A stretch of DNA of 63,915 nt, the filler included. It is 9 parts of 9 records of this genome, joined end to end, with 100 filler letters (N's around TTAATTAATTAA, not from the genome) between each part and the next. Parts side by side here need not be neighbours in the genome. Positions count along the whole stretch, not along the records: positions 1 to 8,648 come from SRR7504441_6324; 8 more parts are not named here. One strand, 5' to 3'. Below the pieces are notes generated by a model. That model was not told the DNA's origin. It saw nothing but the letters and a program-made list of their open reading frames with translations, and did no database searches. The position numbers and the translations under genes were made by a program. Shown here piece after piece: positions 272 to 50,625 of the stretch (its first letter is position 1; each line of letters opens with the position of its first letter).

Positions 272-1342
272 ATGTCGGTGCAGCGAGTGGTGTCTCTTTT
301 GGCCTGGCTCGTGCTCGGCCGGGCGGTGAACCCGGCTTGGCCGGCGGAGTGGAGCCTTGCACGGAGTACGGTGGTCCAGCCGGGTGGGCCGGCCGGTGGC
401 TACTTCGATCCGGCACACCCCTGGGGGCTGGTGAGCCTGGACTGGGGGGTCGCATCGAGCATATGGCAGCCCCGCAACGCCTGCGAGGCCGTGTCCGTGG
501 AGGGCTGCCGGCGGCTCAAGGCGGCGGGCAAGGCGGTCAGGTGCTTAATCTACCACAACATGGAGCTCGGGCTCTCGTGGCTCGAGAGCAACCGGCAGGC
601 CATGTACGATCCGGCCCGCCGGCACTTCTGGCTGCGCTGGCCGAACGGCTCGATATACAATGAGCGGATCAGCTGGGGAGATCAATACTTTTGGGACTAT
701 CGGAACCCGGAGGCGGCCGAATATATGATCCAGGCGGTGATTCAGGCGGTCAACCACTCGGCGACGGACGGCACCTTCACGGACGACGTCGGGTTCGGAG
801 GGGAGCACCAGGCCGTGGCGCAGCGGCTCGGGCTGAGCGCCCGGGCGGTCTGGGACTTGGGGAACGCCACGCTGCGCACCTACGACCGGCTGGTGCGGGC
901 GCTGGTGGCCACGGGCAAGTTTAACTGGCAGTCGCTCGGGGCCTGGGGCGACTTCGCCGGACCCGGGATCAAGCAGAACGCCTCGGCGCCCGACCCGCCC
1001 TGGAGCCAGCCGCTCGGCTGCCTCGATTTCTTCCGACGGTACTGCGCTCAGCCAATGTCGCCGATGCTGATGGGGGTGGTGGGCGGCACACCGGTCAACC
1101 ACTCGATAGCGGCCTTTCTGATCGTGCGGGCCGAGATCGGCTACCTGGGCTGGGGCTGGGAGGGTGTGGTCAACCAGGACGTCAGGTGGGACCCGATGTT
1201 CGCCCTGGACGTGGGAGAGCCGAACGGCCGGTGCACTGAGACGGCCCCTGGGGTGTTCTCGAGGGAGTGGACACGCGGCCGGGCCGAGCTGGACTGCAAC
1301 CGGTGGGTGGCCGACCTGCAATTTGATCTACTTAAGTCATAG
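272..1342 (+). CDS. Secreted putative glycoside hydrolase (GHL15-like)
   Basis: 356-aa intronless ORF with a hydrophobic signal peptide. Motifs YFWDYRNPEA, DGTFTDD and C-terminal LDVGEPNGRC..GVFSREWTRG.AELDCN resemble hypothetical glycosyl hydrolase family 15-like proteins. Confidence 0.6.
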   Translation: MSVQRVVSLLAWLVLGRAVNPAWPAEWSLARSTVVQPGGPAGGYFDPAHPWGLVSLDWGVASSIWQPRNACEAVSVEGCRRLKAAGKAVRCLIYHNMELGLSWLESNRQAMYDPARRHFWLRWPNGSIYNERISWGDQYFWDYRNPEAAEYMIQAVIQAVNHSATDGTFTDDVGFGGEHQAVAQRLGLSARAVWDLGNATLRTYDRLVRALVATGKFNWQSLGAWGDFAGPGIKQNASAPDPPWSQPLGCLDFFRRYCAQPMSPMLMGVVGGTPVNHSIAAFLIVRAEIGYLGWGWEGVVNQDVRWDPMFALDVGEPNGRCTETAPGVFSREWTRGRAELDCNRWVADLQFDLLKS

Positions 1343-1482
1343 ATAATAACCATAATAAACTAACACAATCATGCGGCATCGGCGGCGGCTACTCGTTCGC
1401 TCGTTGGCCTTGTATACTGCGTACCGCCGAGCCAACAGGAGCTACACTGAGCCGGCTTCAACGGAAGCATCTCGGCAACAGC

Positions 1483-4400
1483 ATGGGCGAGCGGCGGGCC
1501 GAACTGCAGAGGCAGTTGGACGAGTTTGTGTCCTCGGGCCGGGCCCAGCTGGAGATGAGCCCGCAGCTCTCCGCACAGGACCGGGCGATGGTGCACCAGC
1601 TCGCCCAGCAGCTCGGGCTCGACCACCAATCCAAGGCAAACCGGCCGCCGCCACCGCTAACCCGGCGCAGGGGCAGGGCGGCCAGAGGTTCGTCTGCGTG
1701 TCCAGGGCCCAGAAGCCGGTGCTGCGGGAAGGCGCCGGCGAAGGGCTGCAGCACGGGGCGGCGGAGGTGATCCAGGCGATCAAGTCGGTGACCTGGGACG
1801 GTCGGCTGCCGGCCCGTGGATTCGTGATTGGCTACGAGGACCGGTTCCTCGGGCTGCTCGAAAAGTCGTTCACTGCGTTCGAGGGGTTCGGTGCTGAGAT
1901 CGCCGGGCTGGGCGGCCGGCGGGCCCTGGCGATACCCACCCACAGGATCCGTCATGTCAAGTACAAGGGCGAGTTGGTCTGGGACCGGGCCGCCAGATAC
2001 GATGTGCTGCGCCAGGTCATCTCCGAGGCATGCCAGGCCAGTCCCGCCGGCAGCCCGGCCGAGGCTGGAGAAGCGCTCGGTGTGAGCGCAGACAGACTGG
2101 CCTGCGTGCCACCGGACCGGCCACACACGCACTTTGTGTGCATCCGTGTCGCCACCACCAGCAGCGCCAATGCCGCCCACGCAGTGCGGCAGCACCTGGC
2201 TGGCCAGCGCGAGGGCCTGTCGGAGCTCTGTCTGCCGCCCGCTGCGCTGCACCTCACTTTGGGGTTGGTCTGCTGCCCTGACCCGGCTGCAGTGGCCAGG
2301 CTCGGCCGGCTGATGACCCAGCTTGGCCCGTTGTGGCACGCGCTCTTGGCGGACCAGTCGATCAGGCTGCACGGGGTCAGGAGCCTCCGAGGCGGCAGGC
2401 TGCTCTACACTCGGCCAACCCATCCGGAGCGGCTGGCGGCCGCCGCATACGCGCTGCAGGTGGCGGCTCACGCCGAAGGCTTGCTCAATAGGAGCCAGCT
2501 CCATTCGGTGTACGAGCCGCATGTCACGCTGCTCAATCTGCGGCCGCAGCATGAAGCGCTGATGCAGCCCGGTTGGAGCTGGGACCCGATCTCAGAGCTG
2601 GACTTTGGTACGTTGCAAGTCACCCAAGTGCTTGCGTGTGTGGCCGGACCCTGGGCGGAGAACCATGAGGAAGCCTCCCAGTTCTACCCCGTCGCGCACC
2701 GCACCGTACTGGCTCCGTTCTCGCCTGTGTCTGGCCAGCTGGTGGTCCTGCAGCGTGATGATAATGCTGCTGGACCAGTCGACCAAGGCGCGATCAGTGC
2801 TGACTATTACCAGAATATATTCGCCGGAATGCCGCATTCGACGGTCCGCGACTGCGTTGGGTCAACTGCAGCGCTTCAGGTGCAGCACAGCGCTGCGCTG
2901 GATCGGCCCGATCGGGCCTGGCAGCTGAGCCAAGGCGGTGTGTTGCTCGAGTTGGCTGAAGCGGCGCTCCTAGGCCTGAGCATGGTGTTGCTGGACCCAG
3001 GTCCTAACTGCCCGCTAAAAGCGATGGACACGCTGCTGCATGTCGGCCTGTGCGCTGGGTACATTGGTTGCGTGGCAGCGGCTCCAGGGTCTGCTGTCCC
3101 AGCCGAGGCAAGCCACCCACTTTGTGTGCAGACTCTGGATGGCAGCTCCACGCTCCAACTGCTCAGACCCAGCTACAGCTGCCTGCAGCTCACTTCTGAG
3201 AGCAGTGATCTGCTACTCACTACGTTCCCGCCCGCCTTTGAGAAGGTGACGGCCAACCACGTCACGCTCCGGTTTGCACCCTCCGCCAGTCAGCTGGACG
3301 AGCTAGCTAGTCAGATGGAGCCTGAAAGCGAGCTGAACGAACTCCGCGTGGTTGCCAGCTTGCCGATCAGTGTTCAAGAGCAGTACGGGATTCAAGCTGT
3401 GACTGTCCAGATCCCGGCCGGTCTGAGCTGCGCCAATGAGCATCCGCACGTCACCCTGTCAGCAAGGAAGGGAGTTGCAAACAAAACTTCGAACGATGCA
3501 CTGGCTAGCGCTGAAACTTTAGAGCCCATAGAGCCGCCTCTGACTGTATCTGCGAGGTTGGTTGTGGTGTACCGTGCTGGCAATATCCGGCGGGACCTTG
3601 CGGATCCGGTTCACGTTCGCTGCCTGACAAGCCAGATGCGACAAGGCAATAACAAGTCGGGCCAGGGAAGAGCCTCCGCCGTTGTCGGAGCTGCTCCAGA
3701 GGGTGCACCGAGCGAGTCGAATGACCCTGTGCGGATCCTTCACATCTTCGACTTTGACCAGACCCTGTTCATGACCACCGACCCGGTTATTGGCAGACTC
3801 GAGTACAAGGAGCTCACCGGGCGCGCCTGGCCACATCAAGCCTTCCTGGCTCACCCAGAATCGCTCATGTGGCCGTTCAAACAAGTGGCTGGCCCGGCTC
3901 TGGCGACACTGCGGGATGTGTCGGACCAGCGCGGTGCATCAGTCAGGGCCGTGATCGTGAGCGGTCGCCGCGCAGCATGCAAGCAGCAAATGGCTGCAAT
4001 GTTAGCCAGAGAGAATATGTCAGTTGACAGCATCATCCTCCGCCAGAACGAGTCGGAGCCCTCCGAGCTCAAGCCGTCTGGAGGTAAGGTGAGGTGGGAT
4101 CAAAACAAAACGCAAGGCAAAGGTCACGCGAAAGCGGCACTGGAGGCAACTGCCGAGTGGAAGGGTGAGATGCTCTCAGAACTGCTCGAGCAACATCCCG
4201 GACTGCGCCAAGTCCATATATACGAAGACGACCCAGCACACTTGAAGGCCTACTCGGAGATAATGACCCAGACAAGCCACAGCTGCGAGTTTGTACTGCA
4301 CGACGCCTCTGCTCCACAAGACGACGTACCAGGAGTCTTGGGTGTGCTACAACGGCACAACCGGCTTGCAGGTAATGGCGAGCGCAGGATTCACGCGCAG

Positions 4401-5576
4401 GCGGCGGCTGTGTTGAGAGATGCATGGTGCGAAGTGGTTGGATATGCTGGCAAGGATGCCAACTGCATTGCACGGATATTTGGCTCCAGCCGTCTGTGGA
4501 GGCGCTCGGATGTCGATCTCTGCCTCATAGGGCCCCTGAGCATGCGCAGCCATGCAGCTTGCGCCGAGGCACTCCAGGCAGTGCTGCAAGCGAGAGGAGT
4601 GGTGGAAACTTACATCGGCGCTGGAAGGGTACCCCGTCTAGCTTGCAGAGTCGCTGTTCGTTCTGACACCATGGGGGCGTATACTCTTGTGGAGTTGGAT
4701 GCTGTGTTTTGTCTGATTGCCGATCACGCCTTTGTTCAGCTGCCTGAAGCCAGCCTGAGCAACGAAGCAATCCATCAGCTGTGCCTCGACGCTGGGGACG
4801 CTGTCTCCCAGGCAGCCATCGACGGCCCGATCGCGTTTGATTCACTTCGTAAACGACTTGTAGGAGAGACTGGTGTGCGCCTACTGAATGTCAAAGAATT
4901 CGGGCGGGCTTTGGAGACGATCTTGTTTGGGTTGGAAAGGGCCCAGTTGAAATCCAACCTGAATGCCGGGGTTCGCACTTTCCAGTGGCAAGAGTGGATG
5001 GCTGAGTACTTGCAACAGTTGCCCGAGGCTCCCATCGGTGCTGATGTACTTGTATCCGGCTTTGTCCGCTGGGTTGCTAGCTTGAATTTGAAGGTCTGGC
5101 AAGACCGACTGCACAAGAGCGCCCAGCATTCAGTGCCAGTGGCCCTCTTGAGGGAACTGCATCAATTCTTCATCAGATGGGCCGGGCTGATCCAAAAGTC
5201 CGGCGATGCCGCCGCCGAGTTGCAGTGCTTGATTTCGAGCCAGGATCGGCCCAGGATGTGTGGGGGTGTCACTGTCACGATTAGTTGCGGCAGTGGAGCG
5301 AAGCTGTGGCGACTGCTGAAGGTGGCGGAGGTGTCTATGGAAGTGTCTGCGCGACGGTTGTTTGACGCCGGTCTAGTGCCACTAGTGACAACACAAGCCC
5401 ACGGGATACGTGACACTGCGTCTGCCGCTTCGATCAGCTTCGGGTTTCTCCAAAGAGGCTCAGGTGCAAATAAGCCAGACGCCGGAGTCGTGGAGGAGTG
5501 TCTAGCGCCGGCTCGAGACGCACTGGACGCCGCTTTGAGCAGCGAAGGCGGTTTCACTTATACATGTAGTCTATAA
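1483..5576 (+). CDS. Multi-domain RNA repair protein: R3H + MJ1316 (DUF504) + two 2H phosphoesterases + HAD phosphatase + pol-beta-type nucleotidyltransferase (LENG9 / Swiss-army-knife-like)
   Basis: Exon 1 (1483-1635; ...DRAMVHQLAQQLGLDHQSK) joins exon 2 (1671-5576; GQGGQRFVCV) across a GC-AG intron, completing the R3H domain. MJ1316 motif: WD..FVIGYEDRF..IPTHRI..LVWDR. HxT motifs at 2250, 2520, 3258 and 3447; FDFDQTLF at 3750; FGS..SDVD at 4482-4517. About 1352 aa. Confidence 0.85.
1636..1670 (+). other. 35-nt GC-AG intron
   Basis: AAG|gcaaac...gctaac...cgcag|GGG. Removal restores the R3H H-x-S-x-G motif and the reading frame. Confidence 0.85.
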
Positions 5577-5883: not shown

Positions 5884-7725
5884 TCAAGCCATCTCACTGC
5901 GCTCAACGCCTGGCCTCAGCTGCCGCGAATCTGTAAAAGCCGGCGAGAGCGGCTGCTGGTCGTCATCCTTGACGTCATGCCCAGTGTCCCCGCCGGGCGA
6001 GTCGACCGACGAAACTTGCTCCATCTCGATCTCCGCCTCTGGACCGTGCTGGTTTATAAACGGAGCACAGGTCTCCCGATCGTCTCCATAGGTCATATGC
6101 AGGAATGAATAGGCAGTAAAGCAGAGCAGCCACGGCACATTCATCGAGAAGAAGAGTGCGTTGCTGAGAGCGTTCGCGTTGTTGAGGTTACACTCCACCT
6201 CGCGACGGTGCCCTCCGGCAGGTGCATCACCCTCAAAGCCAAACACCTACACACGCACAACCTGAGTGCGCAGTAGCCCGGTTCAGGCAGTGGTTGGTAC
6301 CTTGTCGGCAAGGACGCCGACAATCAGGGAGCCGAGGCATGCGGTGGCGCCTTCGATGCACCGGTCGAGCGCATAGATCGTGGAGCGGTACTTGGGGAGC
6401 ACAATCTCCGAAAATATGCACTGGTTCACAGGCCCACACCAGGTGACCGTGGCCCCGAATATGAAAAGCATGAGGCCAAACAGCCAGGCTTCGTGCCCTT
6501 TCGGAAGCAAGTACAGAATGATGAATGTGAGCGGCAGCCCGATCCCCACAGAGAACTGAGCGACGTATACTCGACCATGCCTTACATTCTTGGCTGATGC
6601 CCAGTCCACCTGCAGCCCCAATCAATGCAACCAGCCGCAGCTGCCAGATAGTCACGATTGGGCCTCCGAGGAATCCGCCCGCAATTTGGCCGACATTCCT
6701 GCACCCGCATCGCTCAAGCCCCCGATTAGTATTCGGCACGCACAGTCCGACTACGATTAGCGCGGCTTGCTGATTTGTGAAACAGCTTTCCTCGAGCCAC
6801 ATGGTCAAGAAACTGAGCGCGAACCAGGGCATCGATCCGACCGTGCCCTGGGCCAGAATGATCTGGAACGACCGTACTTTCATCACCTGTCCAGCCTCAG
6901 CCAGCTCGCATGGCTCTCAGGCAGGGCACTTCGCCGAATTCTTTTTTTATTTTACTGAAGCTGAGCTCTTCCGGCTCGCCATCGCGCGGTACGTCTTTAC
7001 CGAAGTAGAGCATCATGAATCCAGTGACCTGCCCCGACCGCTCGGCGTGCAGCCCGCCAGCTGCAGCACACCACACTCATCACTGCCAGCAGGAAGAAGG
7101 CGGCCCGCCATCCGGCGAGCCCGGCCACAGTAGTGGCTGCCATGACAGTGCCCAGGTAGGCCCCGAAGGTGGATCCGACCGCGCCGGTCACCCTGAGCAT
7201 CCCGAACGTCTTGCCGAGTCGCTTCTGCGGGTGCAGGTCCGAGTTGAGCGACTGAATCAGCGGCAGCACGAAGCCGAGCCCGACCCCGTTGATGGTGCGG
7301 AGGGCGATGACTGTGTTGAAATTGGTGGCCATGCCGATCCCGGCGGTGGCCGCCGCCCAGAAGAAGCAGCCGTACGCGATCAGCTTGACTCGATCGTACT
7401 TGCCGGCGAGGATCCCGGAGGTTGGCGACACCAGAGCCTGGAGCAGGCCGCGCATGAGGGTGAGTGTGCCTAGCTGGGACGGGGTGACGCCGAACTCTTC
7501 AGAGAGCTCGTGGAACACCGCCGGGAGCACCGTGAGGTCGGCGGCCTCCACCAGCGAGGTGAGGTTGAGCAACTGGAAGGTTCGGACCGCCAGTCCTAGG
7601 TCTGTCCAGCATTGCTTGGTGGCGCCCCAGCACTGGTTGGCCCCGGGGCAGGTCTCGTCCAGTGGGTTGAGCTCGGCCTCCTCCGACTCGTCGGGAGTGG
7701 GCATCGTGACGCCGGGGGATGCCAT
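5884..7725 (-). CDS. Major facilitator superfamily transporter (spinster-like), 6 exons
   Basis: MFS motifs GILAGKYDRVK and LRTINGVGLG plus multiple TM helices. GT-AG introns at 7029-7071, 6887-6929, 6699-6743, 6610-6655 and 6247-6300 join the ORF pieces in frame. The start could lie slightly upstream. Confidence 0.85.
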
Positions 7726-7812
7726 TCGTGATGACGGCGGTTGGTGGCGTTTGGTGCCCGGTGCCCCTTCGTCCAAACTGACAATGCCGTTGCTTCGGGA
7801 AGACAACGCTCG

Positions 7813-8379
7813 ATGTTGGCTGCATCCCGACTGGCCGCCCGGCCTGCATTCCGCTGCACGGGCCGGCAGATCTCGCCCGGTGCTCTGCTCCGTCAGCCGT
7901 GGTGCGACGCTGCTCGAGCCTGCCGCAGCCTCCGCCCCCGCCGCGGGCTATCGTCGTCCGCCCCTGCGTTCCCGCACAGCACGGAGCCCGGCTCCTTTGG
8001 GGCCCGGACCCCGTTCATCTTGATCGCGCGGGTGCAGGTCAAGCCAGGCAAGGTGCGCGAGTACCTCCAGGTGGCCGGGGTGGTCGACCAGGGCGTGCAG
8101 GACAGTGAGCCCGGGATGCTGCATCACACGTTCGACGTCTCGCCGGACGACGATCACGCCTTCACCTGGTCCGAGGTGTACCAGAACGACGCAGCGCTCG
8201 GAGCCCACCTGGCCAACCCTTGCGTCGGGGAGTATTTGGAGGCGCACGCGGCAATCTGTGAGAGCTTCAGCGTGGAGGTTTACGGGACGCTCAGCGATGA
8301 GACTGCCGCGATCGCGGCGACGCTGCCTTTCCCCGTCAAGATTTGGAAGACCATGCTTGGGTATTCACGGATCCAGTAG
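7813..8379 (+). CDS. ABM-type (antibiotic biosynthesis monooxygenase-like) protein with Arg-rich N-terminal presequence
   Basis: ARVQVKPGK...EPGMLHHTFD...FTWSEVYQND..L.AH matches the dimeric alpha/beta-barrel pattern. The N-terminus MLAASRLAARPAFR looks like a mitochondrial targeting peptide. Confidence 0.7.
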   Translation: MLAASRLAARPAFRCTGRQISPGALLRQPWCDAARACRSLRPRRGLSSSAPAFPHSTEPGSFGARTPFILIARVQVKPGKVREYLQVAGVVDQGVQDSEPGMLHHTFDVSPDDDHAFTWSEVYQNDAALGAHLANPCVGEYLEAHAAICESFSVEVYGTLSDETAAIAATLPFPVKIWKTMLGYSRIQ

Positions 8380-12586: not shown

Positions 12587-15500
12587 ATGGAGACGCCAGC
12601 GGAGGACGGGCAGCAGTCTGCCTGGCGGGCGGCCGGCGCGCAGTCGCGTAGCCTGGTCAACCTGATCAAGCATGGAGGGTCGGCCGTGTCTGAGGACATG
12701 GACGTGGTGGACGGCAACACCGCGGGGCTGATGGAGGCGATCGACTTTCGGTACGTGCCCATCCGTTGGCTGTGCGGGCTGGTGCGGCAGCCGGTGTTTG
12801 GATCGGACGACCCACAGGCCGCCGACCAGCTGGACCACGCCGAGCTGCTCTACCGGCGGTACCTAGCCACCCGGAACGGGCCGACGGTCCAGCGGGCCTA
12901 CATGTTCGTCGGGGTCTGCCTGCTGTTCTTCGGGGGGGTGGTGCTGGTGATGGCCCTGGACGACTGGTCCGGCTCCTACGAGCCCGGGCACACCCCGTCC
13001 AACAGCGACCAGCAGCGGCTGCGCGAGCTCCGGCTCGAGCTGGCCGGGGCCTACTTTGGGGGCAGCGTGGCCGCAGGCCTGGGGGCGGCTGTCTGGGGCA
13101 ACCACCTTTTCGCGGTGGCCGCCACGCTGTGCCGGCACACGACGGTGCAGCTCGTAACAGCCACTGTGATAGCCGCCGCGCTGTCTTACGTGGCTGACGT
13201 GTACAAGCGCGAGTACGACGACAATGCACTCGACGTGCCGTTTGAGAATAGTTTCTTCACTGGGTCAATCTGCACCGCTGTACTTGTCATCTTCTCTCGG
13301 TATGGCGGAATGCAGTGGCCGGCCGCTACGCTGATGGTTTTCCTCACGTGCGGCTACTGGATCTATAAGATAGCACACGACCGGGTTCTCACTATTATCT
13401 CGGCTGTGCTTCTGTTCGGCTTAATCACTCGTATTTCGCGAGCAGATGACCGGAAGGAGCGGCAGTCGTTCCTGATGCAAGGGATGGGCGGAGTGATCTT
13501 CAATCGATACTTGCTGGCGGCCCGGCCGCTGTACCGATCCGACCAGACCACTGTGCTGCTCGGCAAGGATCTATGGGCCGAGGTGCTTGGTATGAGCTCA
13601 GTGGCTCTCAAGCTCACTAAGGTGCTCGAAGTAGACTCGGGCTGCACGCTGACCTTGTGTGGTGCAGTCTCTCGAGTCCTTTGAAGCCGAACTCCAGGCG
13701 CGATTCGGCCAAGAGCCGAGCCTGGACAGCTTGATACGCAAATCGGCTTTGCTGGATTCAAAGTACGTGGTGCCTGTAGTCGCTTGGCACGAGCATGTCG
13801 GCACAGCTCCTGTTCGGAACCTGGTCTCTGGACCGAATGCCGTCCCAGCAAATGACGACTGGGGCCGAGGGAGTGTACGGATGGAGCGTCGAGATGGTAG
13901 CCATCGGCGGCGCACCTCTTTTACCGATGATTGGGCCGACACTGAGACAATGTATTGCATTGCAATGCCTATGGCCCGGGGCAACCTACGCGACACGCTC
14001 GCCACAGAGGACTTTGCAGGCAAGGACGTGGTCCAGATCCAGACGCTTGCCCAAGAGGTGGCCGAGTGTCTGTCGCACCTGCACGCGAAGGGTCAGATTT
14101 TAGCAGACTTGCGCCCATCGAATCTCGTGTTGAGCAACGGACGGTGGAAGCTGATCGATCTAGACTCTGCAGTCCCGGTGGGCGCTCGGCTGCGGCAGGG
14201 TAAGTTCACCGAGGCCTACATGCCGCCTGAGGTTATGAAATACCGGTTGGTCACGCGAGGCTGCCAGCACACTTCTTTGGATCCAGTTGTTGCATCGCCA
14301 GCGTTGGACATTTGGAGCTTTGGGGTGGTTTTATACGAGCTCCTGACAGGGTTTCCTCTGTTTCGACACCAGCAGGTCACTGGGGCGCTCGCATCACTGG
14401 ACGAATGCCAGCGGCTCAAGTGCTGGCGAGAACTCTCCCGTCAGCAGCTTGCCATGATACTGAGCGAAGATGCTGCTTGCTCTTTGGTTCGGAGGGTCAT
14501 GGCAGCCGACTTAGTGGCCATGTGCTTGCAAGGTAATCCTGAGAACAGGATTGAATCTGTGGATCATATCCTTGCTCACCCGTTCTTCAGCGACCATGTG
14601 ATGGCCATGCCAGTATCAAGGTTTAGCTCGTCTTCGTGTATTCATTCTTCTGCCTCCCACCGCTTTAGCCTGCGATCGAGCACGTCGGAACAAGGCTTCC
14701 GAAGCAATGCACCTGACGTCATTATCTCATACTCCAGCTCCCAACTTGCTCAGATGAAGCGACTTCGGCAGAGCCTAAACATGCTTGGGATCAGCACTGC
14801 TGATGGCAGCCAAGTGCCGCCTGGGATGGACTGGAGGATTTGGTACTTTCAAAAGCTGGAGGGGGCAAAGGTGTTTCTTCCCATCTTATCCAAGACTTTC
14901 ATGAAATCGCCCGAGTGCAATGAAGAGGTGCTGCGCGCTCAAAAGAAGAATTTACCGGTCGTGGCTTGCATGGCCGATCGAGCCGGCTGCGAAGAGGTGG
15001 CAGCCGCAACAGATTTAGAAAATGACCTGCGAGAGCGGATAGCAACTTATAATGATTATCTTGGCAACACTATCCCCGCAGCTGGGGACCTCTTTGGTAA
15101 AGATTTGGAGGCGAGCACGAGATTCTTTGACTACCTTAGAATCCTAGTTCAGAATCTGCTCCCTAGTCTGGAAGAAGTGAAAGAGCAGTCGCCGCAAGCC
15201 ATTCTATTGTGCGCTGAGAGCGACATGAAGTTTACCCATGGCCTACGTGTACGGCTTGAGGATGTGGGCATCAGGGTGGATCTAGGCCGCACAGTGGCGA
15301 GCCATTGGCACGACGCCAAGATTCTGGTCCCTGTGCTATCAGACAGTTTTCTGTTTTGCAGTGAGTGCACCAAGGTCATGCTCTGGTGCACTCAAGAGAA
15401 GAATCTGGCAATCGTGCCGGTGCTGTGCAACTCGAAGGCGTACTCCGCCGTGATAAGCGCAAGTGGAGAGGATAGCCCGTACTTTGCACAACACCCAGGC

Positions 15501-16181
15501 CTGGCTGAGGCACTCCCTTTCTTGTGCAGTGTGCTGAATCGGTGCAACCGCATACCGCCAAACACAGACTTTTCGGACGACCCATCTGTGCTCGAGGAGT
15601 TGCGTATGGCCATCCTCGAGCAGGGCCAATACTCGCGGAGTATAACCAATCTTGTGGCACAGAGAGTGCCAAAGTACGCGGCATTGATTGGTTCGTCCAA
15701 ATGTGTGCCGCGCAGCTGTGAAGTCTTCCTGGATAATGAGCAAGAACACATGCTGGAGCTCTGCTCAGTGCTGCAGACGCAGGTTTGGTCCAGGCAGTCT
15801 GGAGCTGGGCCAGAGCCAAAGCGTGCGTCTGCTCAGCCAGAGAAGGTGCTAATTTCGCACAACCATCATGAGACTGCGTTGCGACTACAGAAAGCATGCC
15901 AGCAGCACTCGATTGAAGCAATCTTGCTACCTGTGGGTGATCTGAGATGGTATAGGTATCTCCAAGATGTGGAGATTTGCCTCTTGTCTCTTACACCTGA
16001 ATTTGTGAGGTCCTCTTGGTGCGAAGGGCAGCTCACATTTGCCAAGGACTGCCGCAAGATCATAGTTCCGGTGATCATGGATGAAGTGACGTTTGCTATT
16101 CTAAACGAGTTTGATGGCCGCGAGAATGAAATACCTTCATACCTCCTAGACGCGTCCATGCCAGCTTTCGATGCCGGATAG
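12587..16181 (+). CDS. Multi-TM Ser/Thr-type protein kinase with three C-terminal TIR domains
   Basis: Exon 1 (12587-13621) has about 6 hydrophobic helices and ends in VALKLTK. After a 46-nt GT-AG intron (13622-13667), exon 2 carries kinase motifs LADLRPSN, KLIDLD, YMPPE and DIWSFG. TIR-like units follow at about 14715-14970, 15190-15430 and 15840-16080. Confidence 0.85.
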
Positions 16182-42633: not shown

Positions 42634-42733
42634 NNNNNNNNNNNNNNNNNNNNNNNNNNNNNNNNNNNNNNNNNNNNTTAATTAATTAANNNNNNNNNNN
42701 NNNNNNNNNNNNNNNNNNNNNNNNNNNNNNNNN
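42634..42733. other. Artificial contig linker
   Basis: N run + TTAATTAATTAA + N run. Confidence 0.99.
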
Positions 42734-45700
42734 CACTTGACCATCCTTCTGTTCGGCCGTAGCCAATGTGGCTTGTGCTTCAGTGTTTGACTTTTGGCTC
42801 TGCGCTTGGGCTAGGCTTGTCTCAGCTTGACTGATCTTGATGGAGTCACCTGTTCTCTTGGCCAGTTCCACAGAGGCCAGAGCCTGCTGCTCAGTACGAA
42901 TAGCCTCAGCAGCATTGTCTCTATAATCTTGCACAGCTAGCTGTGTGGCCTTTTCCTTGGTTTCCTGCTGCTTCACCTTAGTCTCCTCCACAAGGGCACG
43001 CGCAGCTGAGATCTGAAGCTGGTCCCCAGCCGCTTGTGCAGCCTTTAGCCCAGACTCAGCCTGATGGACATCCTGCTCTAGCGTCGTGAGCTGCTCTTGG
43101 GCCCTCTCTAATGGGCCTGTCTCCTCCTGGGACGCCGGTTCTTGTGGCTGTGGTGGGATTGTTGCAGGAGCGGGTGCAGCACTCTGTGCTGATGCCACTG
43201 CTGCTGTGGGCGCAAGCGTTGGAACCACAGTGGGTGACTCAGTCGGCGGGTATAGGCTCCAGCAGATGAACTTGACTTTGGTTGCAGCAACCATGCCGCG
43301 TTGACTGATATGAGTGTCAGGAGATATCTTCAACCGCACTCGCTTGTGTAATCCTGCACCCATCTCGAAATCACCAAGGGATCTATAGTGCGGCTCTTTG
43401 TCTGAAGTGAGAGTGCTGATCTCTTGAACTGACTTGCCATCGCTTCCAAGAACCTCTATCAGGCCTGGTGTACTCGGCATATCTGGGGCTCGCGCTACAA
43501 AGAAGAACACCTCACAGAGAGAGTCAGTGACCAGCCGGGTACTAAAGTCAATGAAAGCTGCAAGGTCATACGTGTGCATCCCGGCCTCGCCACGTTGCTG
43601 GTGGTGGCATTCTGTCCAATTGCCAACCATCTCTGCATGAGGATCATCATAAAACACTGTCTGAATGGCTGCTCGCTCAGCAACTTGAATCTCCCAGCTG
43701 CCCTGAGACTTGCCCGAGCAGGTCAACTCACCACTGTCTCGAGCACCCAAGAACTCGAGGTCATCACTTCGTTGCAGCATCACGCTACTGTCTTCGTTGA
43801 CGGCCCCCATCTGCCCGGGTTCAGCTGAAGCCTTGACAAACCATTCGGTGCCCTCCTGAGGTTCCAACTCGGGTGGTCCGGCGCCAAAATACAACAATCC
43901 GCCTTCAGGCCGCTCGAATCGAACCTTGGAGCCGTATTCAACAAATGTTGTATCGTACCGCTCCGGAACACTGCGGACAGTCCAACTGGCCCGAAAGTTG
44001 GCAACCTTTGCAGATGCGCTCACAGTCTCACTAGTGAGAAACTTGCCATTATCAGAAAGCAAATACACCCTGTCCCCTAGCTTTATTGGTGGACTTGATC
44101 CAGCAGCCAGCCTCTCACAAGACATTGTTAGTCTGGTTGCAGTCACCAGGCCGATCCCGTTGCCGCCAGGTTGCAGCTGCACTCGCCGCTGTAGCCCATG
44201 CTCCATGTAGAAATTGCCCAGAGATATCATCTTTGCTGTACCTGTCATCCCTGCAAATGAGATCCGTCTCTCCTTCTCGCCGCCAATCTCATACACAATC
44301 AGCCGTGCATCTGGATCACCATCTGGCCTCGGGTCCACCCAGTAATTGAGCCCACAGAATGCGTCGTAAGGCAGAGCAGCTTTGAAGAGGAACCAAGCTT
44401 TCAGGTCGGCTGGTGCTTTGGGAGTATAGTGTGGCAGCGCACCTTGCTCGTCTAGCTTCCACTGGCTACCCCGCGTTACAAGGTTGGCATCATCAATGTC
44501 AACTTGAATCCTGCTGGTTGCTGGTAGTGGATCGCAAGCCAGCTTGATTGAACTTGCAGCAACATAGCCATCAGAAGCGCCAGACACCCGAACCCTGGGT
44601 TTGCTACCAGCGCTGAACGCAAACAGGCCTAGCTCAAGCCATCCAGATTGCTTACCTTGCAGATTAATGGTCTTTTTCTGCTCGCCAGTGAGTGCATAGA
44701 CACTCACTGGTGCTTGTGGCGAGAGGGTCTTGTCGCGGGGTGCAAAGTACCAGACTCGGCATTTGCTGTCAACCTGCAAGTCTGTAATGAACTCAAACCA
44801 GCTTGCCTGGTCCTGTGATCCCTGCATCACTGAAGGCAGCAATCCAGGCTCCTGCTTGATTGTCCACAGTCCCCAGCGCACGGTACGCAGTGCGTCTGTG
44901 CAGATCACTTGCTGGTGGAGTGCTGGTGGAGGAAGCGGCTGGCACACCAGCTTCAGCCTTGATGCTGTAATAAAGCCCTTGGCCATCTTGTTGAGCCCAA
45001 CAGAGACGCGCTGCCGGGTGCCAGCACCCATCTTGTGACTGCCCAAGAAGGTATATTTGCTACCCTGCCCAGCCCAATTCCGAATCTTGGCAGCGTCATC
45101 ATCAATGGTGTGGATTTTAATCAACCCCTCCTCAGTGCCATGGGCCATCCTGTGAACCCATAGCCACACCTCACACTCACTGTCTTCCCGCAGCCTGGCT
45201 GAAAACATTGCTCGAGCCCCTGTGTCATCTGCAAGCTCAGTCCTTAGATACGGGTGTTCTGCTCCACGCTGGCTCACAGTCCATGCTCCCTCCTTGGCCT
45301 CAGCCGGTGCTTCCTGGAGCGAAACCTCAACCACAGATGGTCTCTGGACACCACTAAGCTGCCACTGACTGCTTGGGTTCCCATTGTATACAGCTATACT
45401 GTCTAACTTCCCATCATTTGACGAATCCTTCTGGACCGACAGATACTGGTTCTTTGGCCCACCGTGCAGCAACACGGTGTCACCCAAGAACAGAGACCCC
45501 GTGGAACCCTCCTGCTTGAAGTTGAGTATTTGGTATTGTGCAGACTTGTGAGTGCTGCCCATTACAAGCTTACCTGAGGATGCACCAGCCATTGGAAATG
45601 AAAAGAACGAGCCAGGAGTATTGAGGCTCTCGAGTGCAATTGTGTCCCCAAATTGTATGAATCTGGTGGAACCAGGTGACACTGGTTGGGTTAGCCGCCA

Positions 45701-48700
45701 CTGAGTGTTGGGTTGGGTGCCAGCAATCTTGGGTGTGTCGACCAGCACTGGATTGGTCCTCATCAGCTTGTTAGTGGAAGGGGCAAGCACCGAGACAACT
45801 GATCCAAACTGAATGGGTACTTCTCCGGTCTGAAGCACCGAACATTCTAGAATGAGCTTGCTCACCAGCATGTATCCTGAAGTTTTGACTAAAGGCAGTG
45901 ACAGCCGAGCGCGCCGCTCCAGGCCACGTCTGAACAGGACCCCTGCAGCTACCACAGGAGCTTGAGGTTTTGTTGCTTTCTTGCCCTTGAATGAGATCTG
46001 GTATTGGCTGGATTGCCCACTGATATCGAACACAGTAAGGTCAGCAGCTGCAGTGCCAGAAGGATCCTGCCAAATTTCGAATCTCACATCACACCTGGCG
46101 TCAGTCTCAAGCACAGCTTTGAATTCCATCCATGTCAACTTGTCGCCAGCTGCAGCGCTACGTGCATATCCATCGTGCAGCTGCCATGTTCCATGCCACT
46201 CTGTGAGCGCTGCGTCATTGAAAGAGACCTCCACAATTTCCTTCACCCCTGGCGGCTCCTGATCACACCTGGATTCAGCAAACAACTGGATGGACTGGTC
46301 AATCCGCCGCTTAGACGCGCCCTGGCTGGCCAGAAGTACACAACTGGTTGGAGTTTGTCCAATTTGAGGAGTGAAGTCAAAGCAGCTGCACCAGTGCATC
46401 TCACGACACCGATTTTCACACATGTCAAGCGATGCTGGGGCCAGCTTGATAGAGTTGCCCGGAGAGCACTGTTTAGAGATAAGCATTTCAACTTGGTGTG
46501 CTGGGAGTGCACGGTGCCATACTCCAAGATTTGCAACGCACCCGTCAAATCGCAAGCCAGCATGCTTGTTAGCAGGTGCTGCCCCTATTCGAAGGGCGCC
46601 AGTAGCATCCCAGCTAGTGGCACTAGGATTGCCTTCAACTGTGGCCATATCAAGGGGCTCACCATTGGCATATACAGAGATCTGGCTGGTCTGCAGGTTT
46701 ATCACTAGCACAATATTGACCCACTCACTGCGAGTTACCACTCCTTTCTTGGTTGAGTCTGCATAGTCAGTTGGTGAGGTCATCAGTCGCAGTCCACCAC
46801 TGGGTGTCACAAGTAGCGCACTTGAGCCAGATGTGTCCAGCACACACATGTTGCTGGTCCATTGCTTCTCTGATGGTCGAATCCATACTGAGACAGTGGC
46901 TGATTCAGTGAAATGCCCTTGGCCTAGCCCCAACCAGCTTCCTTCTTTTGTTAGACACATTGCTCGACTGTTCTGCCAAGGCCCTGACCCTATGCTCCAG
47001 TCTCCTTTGGCAATTATCTGTGCCTGCTGCTTGGAGACATCTGTAGTGTCCTCGTCAAGTGGGAAGAAGCCAGCTAGAGCTTTGTGCAAGTCATCAACAT
47101 TGCATGATGCTGCCTGTGCTTGCACTGATTGCTTAGGCTCGGTTTTGGGCTCGAAAGGCTTGGTCGTGCTTGCACTTGGTTTGGCTTGTACTGGCAAGGC
47201 AATGCCTTGCAATGTTTCTTCTTTTGGTACAGGTGTATCTGTTGACCTTGGCTGTGCTGCTGTAGCTTGAGGCTCCTGCTCATTGGGTGGAAAGAATTGC
47301 TTCAGGGTAGGCTGTTCCGCATCCTGGAGCAGCCTGCGGGCCACCCCTGTCTGTGGACAAAGTTCAGGCCCTGAGATGACTCCAACCCTATCTACCTTCA
47401 CTATGCTGCCCCGCAGAAGCGAACACTGCTGGGACTTGACAACATAGCTGAAGACCTCACACTGGGGTAAGGCACGGCACAAGGTTTGGCAAGCGGCTGC
47501 GTCATGGACTGGGTCATTTGATGGAGGCGATGCTGGATTTCCAGCTTCGTACGCTGTGTCTGTTTGGAAGCAATCAGTTGAGAACCCTAGCTGCTGCGGC
47601 GCCTTACATGCCTTGGACAGCTTGGCCGAGAAGAGCTCCAGAATTGTCTGCTCCGACGCTTTTACGCCTACTGTCACCTGAGTGCATGTGGCTGTGAACT
47701 CAGCCTGCACAGTCCTCCGGGCTGCTGAGAGCTTGTACGCATCTGTGTTGCCAAGCAGCAGCTGCTCGCCTGATTCAGAGTCTTGCACAGTTAGCTCAGC
47801 CTCGCCCAACGCGATTCCTTCAATACGGAGCACATAGACAGCACCCAGCTCAACCACAATGCCAGACTGGGCCACAGAGCCTCCTGAGAGCTTGAGCTCG
47901 CCGGAGTTGAATCGCCTAAGCGTGCCCTCAGTCGAGCTCTTGACCCAGCGGTCCAAGGTGCTGATGATCAGTGGGTGATGGCATTCAGCTGTGTTGAACA
48001 CAGCCGGTGAAGCCACTTCCGTCACCGGCTTGAAGCATTTTTTCGAGTCAGCAGCTTCGCCTAACGCTCGCACTGGTGACACAAACAGGCTGGAGAGTAG
48101 GTTGCGTCCACACCGGTCGGCCCACTTGCTCATTGAACTGTCAGTGCTAAACTTCTGGTCTGAGAAGCGGCACTGCTTGCTCACCCTCTGTGCATCCAAC
48201 GAGAGCTCGTCATAGCTGCATACAATGTGATCTGACCGGAGAGCCGAACGCTTGAACCCAAGCAACTTGAATCCATTGGCCTCGCATACTTCGCTTTCGG
48301 GCGTAAAGAATCGGATCTGCCACAGTGTGGTGCTCTGCGCCCCAAAGTTGCTCAAAACTCGTAGCCTGAGGTATCTGCTTCGCACAGTGAACCCTGAAAA
48401 CTCTTTATACGTCCAAGAGCTGCGCGAATAGCCTTGCGAGAAGCGCTTGACCAGTTCCCAGTCTGGGCTGTCCAGCTTGAGAGCTGAATCGAGCTCAAAA
48501 TCGTTCATGGCCACCACAGGCACGGGCCTTGGGCCTGGTATCTCGGCCCTTGGTGTGTAGAGCCCCAGCTTTGTCACAATCTTGACTTTGCCCAGGTCGA
48601 ACGCCATCCATCCGTCCACCGACCGGAACACAAACGAACCGCTATATCCACTCATCACATTCCTGCAGCTCGCCTCCTTCAAGAAAGTGGCGCCACCGTC

Positions 48701-50625
48701 GTCTTTGCAGCGCTCACCGGCGGTCCAGGCCCCAAGCGGATGCACCCTCCACCGGAGCGCCTTGTCCAGCTCGTCAACCAGCACAAGCTCGTGCTTCTGG
48801 CTCGCCTTGGACCGGTCCTGCATTCCGAGCCAGCGCCCGTCGCTCTGCAGCATGAGCTCGTCCTGTCTCTGGCCCGATTGCACTAGTTGCCATGCGGCTG
48901 CACGCTCTCTTGTGGGGTCCAGCCCAGCCCCAGACAGCTCAACCACACCGGAGCTGGTGTTTGTGGTCACCCAGGTCCCGCACTTGCGGTCTATCTGGTT
49001 GCATCGCCAGCGTGACTCGATATACACACTCGATGGTTGGCCAGCCACACCATGCAGCTGCCAGGGAACCGCCAGGCTGCCCGGTCGGAACACTGCCCCG
49101 GAGCCTTTCCGGCTGGATCCCGGATAGGCCTTAAGCCGGTCTCCGCTGAAGCTCATCCATTGGCCTGGACAGAGCCCACTGTCCGGCTCGACGCAGCCGT
49201 TCCTGCTTTCAAGCAATACGAGCCTCCCGTCGATGGGTGTCTGCCACATGCCCTGATCTCGGTCCTGCCGACTGGGGTTGCTCCCGGCGGTCCGGTCTAA
49301 GACGAGTTGCTCTCTCAGGATGCCTGGGGAGAGGCTGGCGGGCTGGCGGGTGAGCAACCGGCCTCGGGCCCATACCGTGCCATTGGTGGCCACCACCAGC
49401 CGCGGCTCCAGCCCGCGCCACAGCGCGAAGCTGCCCGACCGGTCCACTCCTGCAGTCCATTGGCCCAGTCGCCGCCAGAGCAAAGCTCCGCGTAGCCCCG
49501 GGGCCGGGTGGCTCGTGTCGGTGGAGAGGAAGCCACTGGCCCCGGGGCCGTGTGCCCACACTCGGCCGTCCGCGCCGTTTACGAACCAGAGGCAACGGCC
49601 CTGCCGCCATAGTCCGAAGTGTCCGTTTGTGCTCTCGCCCACATGCCAGCTGCCCACAGCCACAGTTCCTGAGCTGTGCGGTTCCCCCGCCTGCTCTGGA
49701 CCTGCCGGCTCCGAGACCGACAGATAGCCACGTGACCCGGCGGCCCAAGTCGCCCCGTCCGTGCGCACAAAGAACTGGCTCCACTCACCAGTGAACCAAC
49801 TAAAGTGTCCATCGACTGTCTCTCCCATCTCCCATCGCACCGGAGGGCTGCGCGCCTGCGAGGCCGCCAGTGGTGCGGCCGGTTGGGCCAGCAGCACTGG
49901 AACGGCCAGTGGGACGTGCGCACCCGTCGGTGTGTCTGGCCAGGCCAAGAACCCCTGGCCCCCAAGTGGTCAGCCTGGAATGCCTATCCTCCCACCTTGC
50001 GTAGGGCACACCAGAGACGGCCTTCGGGCGTGAGCGCCAAGAGCGGTCGAGATCCGTGCCAGACCACCCACAGCCCGGCCGACGATTGGCCCACCCGCCA
50101 AGTCTCGTCGACACGCGCCACCGCCACCGCCGAGCCCACCTCCAGCTTGGGCACCGGTTCGGCGCTCGGCACCCAGCCTTCGCTGCGCCCGCCCGGGTAA
50201 GTGAAGCCCAGCCCGGTCATACCGCCAGATCCCGCGCCGCTGGGTGACGCACAGCTGCGCCCGCCCCGCCGCCCACAAGCAGAACTCACCGGTGGTCGAT
50301 CCTGCCAGCCGCCACCGCCCGGCCCGAAACCGTCCAATCGGCGACCCGAGCTGCGCCGCCTTGCTGACCGGCCGTTCTGACGGCTCCAGTGCCAATCGCA
50401 GCTGTTGCCCCCGGGGTGAGCCCACAGCCCCTGGCAGCGCGTCACCTGCCCATTGAGGTAGACGCCGAACCGGCCGTCGATACTCTGGCCGGCGCTCCAC
50501 TGGCCGCGCGCGACCCGGGGTCGCGGACTGGCCGCGCCGAGCTCGACCACCCGGACCACTGGGTCGGCCCAAGCCGCCGCTGTTGCCAGGAGGACCAGCC
50601 CCGCCACAAGCCGTCTGGCCCTCAT
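42734..50625 (-). CDS. Giant secreted mosaic protein (more than 2550 aa, 3' truncated): Trp-rich repeats, beta-trefoil-like, F5/8C discoidin, PAN/apple, LamG, repeated beta-sandwich modules, coiled coil
   Basis: Signal peptide MRARRLVAGLVLLATAAAWA. Introns at 50402-50445, 50183-50222 and 49955-49995 join into the 2420-aa ORF. Discoidin WMAFDLG..SRYLRLRVLSNFG; apple ACQTLCRALPQCEVFSY; LamG TVSVWIRP..WVNIVLV..VYANG..FDG.VANLGVWHRAL. Confidence 0.85.

Follow-up and report, generated by a model that had tools for sequence, protein, structure and literature searches.

Metal-independent RNases leave RNA ends that carry a 2',3'-cyclic phosphate, and several classes of enzyme can process such ends. 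The cyclic phosphate is opened by 2H enzymes of the tRNA-ligase CPD type, which leave a 2'-phosphate; terminal phosphates are taken off during RNA repair by HAD phosphatases, and poly(A)-polymerase-like enzymes add nucleotides to a 3'-OH that is free. The AKAP7-type 2H fold can also act on 2'-5' oligoadenylate, which it cleaves. The RNA repair proteins called SAK ('Swiss Army Knife') were reportedly defined as a class by computational means, by Burroughs and Aravind in Nucleic Acids Research in 2016. Here we analyse a plus-strand gene at positions 1483 to 5576 of a 63,915-nucleotide stretch of DNA (hereafter the window), which consists of 9 parts of 9 records of one genome, joined end to end with 100 filler letters between parts, and whose first 8,648 positions come from SRR7504441_6324. 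The gene most likely encodes a single polypeptide of ~1352 amino acids (aa) from a marine microbial eukaryote. This protein is a derived variant of a widespread, computationally known family, being devoid of the family's kinase and most probably carrying its R3H domain first. We lean towards the view that it heals and then tails RNA 3' ends, whether damaged or processed, as a member of a widespread end-healing family.

The main reading frame is open from stop to stop over 1359..5576 (+; 1405 codons). Most of it is assigned to the second of two proposed exons (1671..5576, +). This exon, delimited by the open frame and by alignment with relatives, opens with the final strand of the R3H domain, runs for 1301 codons (1671-5573) and closes with a stop codon (5574-5576). 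The 1301-codon frame is intact, and alignment with relatives (1300-1900 aa) extends along its product. Four sets of catalytic motifs are kept: each of the two 2H phosphoesterases has its own, as do the HAD phosphatase and the poly(A)-polymerase-like nucleotidyltransferase. Two RNA-binding modules, R3H and MJ1316, accompany these enzymes. Pfam scans were run in the standard code and matches were judged by the curated cut-offs. GC content at third codon positions (GC3) declines from 5' to 3' along 1483-5573, from 0.92-0.95 through 0.83, 0.76 and 0.65 to 0.61, and overall GC along the gene falls from ~0.69 to 0.57.

The MJ1316 domain (1779..1988, +; Pfam PF04457, 55.5 bits with a cut-off of 26.3, E 9.6e-15), defined in Pfam as an RNA cyclic-group end recognition domain, retains the blocks conserved in the alignment with relatives (WD, GY.DRF.G..EK, IP.HRI and VWD). 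It is followed by 2H domain 1, which is of the AKAP7/LENG9 type (2127..2648, +; Pfam AKAP7_NLS PF10469, 57.3 bits with a cut-off of 24.4), possesses the HxT motifs HLTL at 2250 and HVTL at 2520, and matches AKAP7_NLS proteins in a PDB sequence search (E 7.4e-8). 2H domain 2 (3144..3590, +) is tRNA-ligase CPD-like and was delimited with a profile built from the relatives, which its first half matches at 40.6 bits (E 9.6e-15); its HxT motifs, at 3258 and 3447, both fall in conserved alignment columns. Of 30 relatives scanned, 7 score above the 23-bit cut-off of tRNA_lig_CPD, the highest at 38.3 bits.

The HAD phosphatase (3735..4319, +) belongs to the SAK-1 family (Pfam HAD_SAK_1 PF10307), scoring 37.5 bits within the whole open reading frame (ORF) and 41.5 bits as a separate piece, with a cut-off of 25.6. 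The DxDxT motif at 3750 lies in FDFDQT (3747-3764), and the downstream S, K and DD are aligned to nearly invariant columns of 39 relatives, so that motifs I-IV occupy the nearly invariant D, D, T, S/T, K and D columns of the family; a lineage-specific insert of ~25-30 residues is also present. Iyer et al. (2021; PMC7824862) describe the SAK HAD family as an RNA-repair phosphatase that acts on linear phosphates.

The C-terminal poly(A)-polymerase-like nucleotidyltransferase (4335..5573, +) carries a GS motif at 4482-4487, DxD at 4509-4517 and a third Asp at 4698-4700. Within the piece 4299-5573, residues G62, D71, D73 and D134 are invariant in an alignment of 40 sequences, and S63 and R68 nearly so. 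Pfam returned no poly(A) polymerase family for this piece at E<=10, and a direct PDB sequence search with the C-terminal piece gave one chance match (E 0.4). Searches with the family profile recovered poly(A) polymerases, the yeast and bovine enzymes at E 6.4e-7 to 1.9e-6 and also the human gamma and fission-yeast ones (E up to 6.6e-5, ~240 positions). A single-sequence AlphaFold2 run on the C-terminal 425 aa yielded an unusable model, with a predicted local distance difference test score (pLDDT) of 46.8; with the 40-sequence alignment, pLDDT was 87.0 and the predicted template modelling score (pTM) 0.88. When this model was searched with Foldseek, the top 14 ranks were all poly(A) polymerases (among them 1f5a, 7q72-74, 1fa0, 2q66 and 4lt6), at E 4.1e-12 to 1.5e-9 over 477-517 columns, with template modelling (TM) scores of 0.49-0.69 and identities of 12-14%. 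The next ranks were held by the terminal transferases Cid1, CutA, URT1 and GLD-2 and by archaeal CCA-adding enzymes. On this structural match the C-terminal module is predicted, with high confidence, to be a complete poly(A)-polymerase-like enzyme with catalytic, central and RNA-binding domains.

A sequence-only reading of the window had placed R3H, MJ1316, two 2H domains, a HAD domain and a nucleotidyltransferase in one reading unit, and on this the Pfam, profile and fold evidence agrees. That reading's MJ1316/DUF504 block is the PF04457 match of 55.5 bits, its two complete HxT pairs (2250+2520 and 3258+3447) were found at exactly these positions, its HAD DxD at 3750 is the DxDxT of a HAD_SAK_1 match above the cut-off, and its GS..DxD motif (4482-4517, with GS at 4482 and DxD at 4509-4517) coincides with invariant residues of a module whose fold matches poly(A) polymerases, every one of these coordinates proving exact. 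It had also described the protein as devoid of a ligase domain, and no ligase family is found among the Pfam matches to the ORF and its pieces. Similarly, neither zf-CCCH nor RWD gave a Pfam match in the window protein.

To place the protein among its relatives, an exhaustive HMMER library search was made with a query of 1200 residues (1779-5378). Of the 507 proteins retrieved at E<=1e-3, 137 reached E<=1e-10 and 23 reached E<=1e-30. The best relatives are 1300-1900 aa long and 28-34% identical, matching in two to five stretches with E down to 1.2e-70, and none closer than this was found in the library searched; a word-indexed search for homologues of similar length, in which 8000 candidates were scored, gave none at E<=1e-3. 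Pfam scans of 30 long relatives and 25 more revealed a recurrent order, [RWD]-[CCCH]-MJ1316-AKAP7 2H-AAA_33 kinase-second 2H (tRNA_lig_CPD-like)-HAD_SAK_1-unassigned region of ~400 aa-R3H. AKAP7_NLS and AAA_33 are each present in 29 of the 30 long relatives, MJ1316 in 26, HAD_SAK_1 in 23 and a C-terminal R3H in 17. The sequence-only reading had not recognised its domain order from any characterised protein; indeed we found no characterised member, although the same order, with a kinase and a C-terminal R3H, turns out to be widespread. An identical architecture already characterised and widespread had been named there as grounds for abandoning the idea; the kinase-bearing form is widespread, and no report of its characterisation was found.

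Several relatives depart from the common order. P0026, from Aphanomyces, ends in an RNA ligase (RNA_ligase PF09414) and is the sole one of the 30 to do so, P0013 (Salpingoeca urceolata) carries NUDIX after R3H, and P0080 an RNase_T exonuclease. The family core appears to be a platform for interchangeable RNA-end enzymes. In some shorter relatives (P0072, P0085 and P0121), neither the kinase nor the second 2H domain is present. Beyond the family, its profile matches AKAP18 (E 6.9e-42) and ASCC1, the polynucleotide kinases Pnkp1 (8.4e-10), mammalian PNKP (2.3e-7) and T4 Pnk (2.1e-4), and the R3H domain of SMUBP-2 (E 1.1e-8). Ten clusters of relatives were looked up and five were named; all were 'uncharacterized', 'hypothetical' or plainly mis-named. 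Members occur in the sponges Halichondria panicea (XP_064394612.1) and Oscarella lobularis (XP_065834305.1), in the choanoflagellate Salpingoeca urceolata and the jellyfish Sanderia malayensis (both EukProt entries), and in the oomycetes Aphanomyces euteiches and A. cochlioides. Spanning oomycetes, algae, sponges and cnidarians, the family offers an accessible target for studying MJ1316/LENG9-like action on cyclic-phosphate RNA ends.

A first difference from these relatives lies between the two 2H domains. The inter-2H region of the window protein (2670..3143, +; ~158 residues) belongs to no detectable family, whereas relatives have here a linker and a P-loop polynucleotide kinase; the stretch is 137-160 residues long, versus roughly 280 in the relatives. 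Pfam gave no match for 2700-3239, and a pattern search found no Walker A motif in the window protein. Of 37 relatives examined, 31 have such a motif, of the GxPGSGKS type, and the other six are short or truncated. The relatives' kinase profile matched the window over just 6 residues (E 0.43), and the profile of their kinase-to-2H region matched only from the start of 2H domain 2 (E 9.6e-15). Aligned with hhalign to the family alignment, 2670-3149 obtained a probability of 0.1%. In a shuffle test on semi-global alignments, 80 of 200 shuffled sequences scored as well as the real one (z = 0.15); three divergent true kinases gave z of 7.7-71. AAA_33/CPD and CNPase clusters came up in an Atlas feature search with scores of 0.76-0.77, which lie below the reliability level of the tool and serve as a lead only. 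Since the kinase of the relatives occupies this same place, we conclude that it has been lost from the window protein. Presenting the present inter-2H sequence as a relic of that kinase was considered and rejected, being unsupported by the Walker A search, the profile, hhalign and the shuffle test. The degenerate kinase proposed earlier (LVVLQR...AISADYY) is therefore not supported: the letters are real, and recall the strand before a P-loop and a SAD motif, but the likeness is not separable from chance.

Taken as a pathway, the retained modules would act in succession on one RNA end. R3H and MJ1316 would hold an RNA ending in a 2',3'-cyclic phosphate, a 2H domain would open the cyclic phosphate to a monoester, the HAD phosphatase would strip the terminal phosphate, and the polymerase domain would extend the freed 3'-OH. 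In the full-length relatives the kinase would in addition phosphorylate the 5'-OH partner, making it ready for a ligase, which is fused in the Aphanomyces protein. With the kinase lost, the window protein would be confined to 3'-end healing and tailing, and the 'heal-and-tail' activity suggested in the sequence-only reading is consistent with the catalytic motifs that remain. That the kinase is gone while the four other active sites are kept would mean that the 3'-end branch (open, dephosphorylate, extend) is selectable on its own.

Several points weigh against this interpretation. We infer the substrate, the order of the steps and the nucleotide specificity alike from sequence. A simple linear pathway leaves the presence of two 2H domains in one chain unexplained, and, as the AKAP7-type fold cleaves 2'-5' oligoadenylate, 2H domain 1 may have another substrate. 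2H domain 2 stays below the Pfam thresholds, with 19.7-19.8 bits for LigT_PEase and 14.2-18.1 bits for tRNA_lig_CPD (cut-off 23). The nearest relatives are only 28-34% identical, which makes any transfer of function loose, and experimental work on any member of the family was not found in the literature searches made.

The same chemistry might, alternatively, serve a housekeeping role, namely 3'-end remodelling or decay-marking of cellular RNAs such as small nuclear RNAs, tRNA ends or fragments tailed for degradation. We consider this unlikely, even though the retention of the family across distant eukaryotes (sponges, a choanoflagellate, a jellyfish) would fit such an 'institutionalised' cellular role and the loss of the kinase removes the ligation-preparing step. 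The polymerase module is also of the canonical poly(A) polymerase type, and scans of the window ORFs show ordinary housekeeping genes adjoining, with no defence or ligase genes nearby. However, gene neighbourhood weighs little in eukaryotes, the fused RNA ligase of P0026 points to heal-and-seal repair within the family, and no target RNA of such a role can be named from sequence.

The second difference from the relatives concerns the R3H domain, which lies at the very start of the gene and in a frame other than the main one. It was detected in an ORF at 1336..1770 (Pfam 37.8 bits with a cut-off of 26.8, E 2e-9), where the upstream frame covers profile positions 4-48 of 60; the last strand is encoded in the main frame. 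The ATG at 1483 is the sole ATG of the R3H frame after the stop at 1333-1335. In the main frame there is an in-frame ATG at 1371, the next occurring only in the middle of the first 2H domain. We propose that exon 1 (1483..1635, +; codon starts at remainder 1 modulo 3) provides the ATG and the first 51 codons, and with them most of R3H, and that it is joined to exon 2 by removal of a 35-nt intron (1636..1670, +) with GC..AG borders, in which a branch-like motif, CTAAC, ends 9 nt upstream of the AG, as judged from the sequence and the R3H scan. For 1483-1635, GC3 amounts to 0.92 when read in the R3H frame and 0.38 when read in the main frame; the main frame then reaches 0.95 for 1671-1800, and across 1636-1670 the R3H frame drops from 0.92 to 0.72. 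This switch implies that the coding frame changes within ~35 nt. The main-frame stretch 1371-1635, with GC3 of 0.38-0.63, is non-coding in appearance.

Homology leads to the same boundaries. Against a test profile built from the C-terminal R3H regions of 19 relatives, the spliced form (without 1636-1670) scored 63.0 bits and was covered to the last strand, while the main frame alone scored 0.6 bits. Plain read-through and 12 single-base frameshift models reached 47.9-50.5 bits, that is, 12.5-15.1 bits less. When 3165 frame-restoring deletions were scored, the best seven were all 35 nt long, with starts at 1631-1637 and 62.6-64.0 bits; among G[TC]..AG pairs, 1636-1670 ranked first by 10.5 bits. 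It is thus quite likely that R3H is made whole only by the removal of these 35 nt as a GC-AG intron, and the hidden R3H exon proposed in the sequence-only reading is supported by codon bias and homology scan alike. Automatic gene callers would probably miss exon 1.

Judged by eye, introns of the GT-AG type seem to interrupt the adjacent, convergent minus-strand gene (5884-7947), which encodes an MFS transporter (Pfam MFS_1), with lengths of ~114 nt (6887-7000), ~46 or 22 nt (near 6620-6665) and ~54 nt (6247-6300). Short introns would accordingly be normal here, although 35 nt would still be at the low end. GC3 frame switches were also considered as a genome-wide gauge of introns and dropped, being far too unspecific in GC-rich DNA. 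A search of metagenome contigs for close relatives in which the intron could be compared produced 27 pattern matches, 0 of which were confirmed by tblastn. One marine and one aquatic metagenome run, with sampled-word shares of only 0.10 and 0.09, yielded low-depth contigs of 151-505 nt that are mostly 95-99% identical to parts of the gene, and such near-identical contigs indicate that the organism or a close strain occurs in natural waters. Over 1300-2554 they provided a single unlike 35-nt piece, leaving the intron uncovered.

Without an intron, the 35 nt would have to be an assembly indel or an insertion disabling a decaying gene, or else R3H would be a separate short ORF and the protein would start elsewhere, for example at the ATG at 1371. 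The shortness of the segment for a spliceosomal intron and the minor status of the GC-AG class speak for such explanations, as do the availability of that ATG, the lack of cover for 1300-1887 by independent contigs in the two metagenome runs and the failure of the homologue, library and metagenome searches to provide close relatives for comparison; decay in particular would suit a gene that has already lost its kinase and whose GC3 is falling along its length. We nevertheless judge them rather improbable. The GC3 swap between frames coincides exactly with 1636-1670 (one frame falls from 0.92 to 0.72 as the other rises from 0.38 to 0.95), the main frame upstream looks non-coding, and the R3H domain, split over two frames, is best restored by the removal of a 35-nt GC..AG segment with CTAAC, single-base repair costing 12.5-15.1 bits. 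The adjoining transporter gene moreover seems by eye to hold introns of ~46-54 nt, and decay is at odds with an intact 1301-codon frame in which all four catalytic motif sets are kept.

With the intron removed, R3H occupies a position seen in no relative: over the 55 relatives scanned it is C-terminal in 19 and N-terminal in 0, always following the unassigned region. The window protein stops exactly where the relatives continue into a linker and R3H, and downstream of the gene there is no R3H, only stops and AT-rich DNA followed by the convergent gene. As the N-terminal R3H, including its preceding helix, fits the profile of the relatives' C-terminal R3H (63.0 bits), relocation of the same module would be indicated, not a new acquisition, which suggests that R3H moved from the C- to the N-terminus. 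Together with the 35-nt GC-AG intron, this relocation is a small but concrete point for the annotation of the source genome.

These differences raise the possibility that the lineage remodelled a heal-and-seal enzyme of the SAK type into a 3'-end heal-and-tail machine, in which the kinase was deleted, the two 2H domains, the 2'/3'-phosphatase and the poly(A)-polymerase module were kept, and R3H was moved to the N-terminus by way of one of the shortest GC-AG introns known. We advance this scenario tentatively, with rather less than even confidence. If true, cleaved RNAs would not be religated by the window protein, their cyclic-phosphate ends would become tailed ends, and the organism would possess a pathway for repair, rescue or decay marking to which no characterised system corresponds. 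A nucleotide-signal enzyme, in which 2H domain 1 would break down 2'-5' oligoadenylate or cyclic nucleotides while such messengers would be synthesised or lengthened by the nucleotidyltransferase, was raised earlier and draws on the AKAP7 type of that 2H domain and its known ability to cleave 2'-5' oligoadenylate, but is very improbable, as the nucleotidyltransferase matches poly(A) polymerases over its full length and terminal uridylyltransferases next, with no OAS or cGAS among the Foldseek ranks shown, R3H and MJ1316 bind nucleic-acid ends or strands by Pfam definition, and the relatives carry polynucleotide kinase and RNA ligase.

The window as a whole is eukaryotic, gene-dense and rich in GC (500-nt steps across the first 10 kb give values of 0.48-0.70). 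Its other ORFs encode products with Med26/TFIIS, protein kinase and TIR, JmjC/cupin, kinesin, calpain, cathepsin C exclusion domain, GH31 and MFS transporter matches. Immediately upstream of the end-healing gene, a GHL15-like glycosyl hydrolase gene (209-1342, +; E 3.4e-13) ends 140 nt before the ATG at 1483, so that the 3' end of this gene and the promoter and 5' leader of the repair gene must share the gap at 1343-1482. The ATG at 1371 lies inside this gap and is out of frame with the R3H frame. Farther away, an 842-codon ORF (13653-16181, +) joins a protein kinase (E 1.3e-23) to a TIR domain (E 7.1e-19) and is possibly an immune or signalling protein. A 2427-codon ORF (42686-49969, -) with PAN, Laminin_G_3 and Golvesin_C matches probably encodes a large secreted or surface adhesion-type protein.

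The SAK class, with which the comparison was made by Pfam families and motifs, is the closest class that bears a name, and the window protein resembles it in two respects: its HAD domain passes the HAD_SAK_1 gathering score with the catalytic motifs DxDxT, S/T, K and DD present, and it unites end-healing enzymes and RNA-binding domains in one large eukaryotic protein. The relatives carry a polynucleotide kinase as well, and one of them also has an RNA ligase. The window protein itself is without kinase and ligase and has its R3H at the N-terminus, and its 2H domains match the AKAP7 and tRNA-ligase-CPD families; other SAK-named Pfam families (2H, PTP) gave no match at E<=1 in the window or at E<=0.01 in the 30 relatives, the presence of these models in the Pfam copy being unconfirmed. 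With the homologues of 1300-1900 aa the protein is collinear from MJ1316 through the AKAP7 2H, the second 2H and HAD_SAK_1 to the poly(A)-polymerase-like module, and R3H is shared as well; the homologues differ in placing a kinase with a GxPGSGKS Walker A motif between the 2H domains and, in many cases, in an N-terminal RWD and/or CCCH.

Individual parts of the protein recall smaller systems. LENG9 consists of CCCH, MJ1316 and an AKAP7-like 2H domain, and the window protein likewise has MJ1316 followed by an AKAP7_NLS 2H with two HxT motifs; it is, however, without CCCH, and the module makes up the first fifth of a much larger enzyme. No study of LENG9 function is apparent from the titles and abstract openings of the LENG9/MJ1316 literature matches listed. 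The central 2H domain of AKAP7/AKAP18 is likewise mirrored by 2H domain 1, which is of the AKAP7_NLS type. The healing half of Trl1, the fungal and plant tRNA ligase, joins a P-loop kinase to a 2H CPD, and the relatives correspondingly have a kinase followed by a tRNA_lig_CPD-like 2H. The window protein appears to keep the 2H part of this cassette with both HxT motifs (Pfam tRNA_lig_CPD 18.1 bits versus a cut-off of 23), but differs from Trl1 in being without the kinase and without an adenylyltransferase/ligase domain. Its polymerase module shares with the canonical poly(A) polymerases (yeast Pap1, bovine PAP, S. pombe Pla1) the three-domain fold (TM up to 0.69), GS, DxD and the third Asp, but only 12-14% identity and no Pfam family match. 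Whereas canonical poly(A) polymerase stands alone within the cleavage/polyadenylation machinery, the domain in the window protein is fused behind healing enzymes. The family as a whole brings together in one chain the MJ1316 and 2H pair of LENG9, a healing cassette of the tRNA-ligase type, the HAD of SAK proteins and a poly(A)-polymerase-like enzyme.

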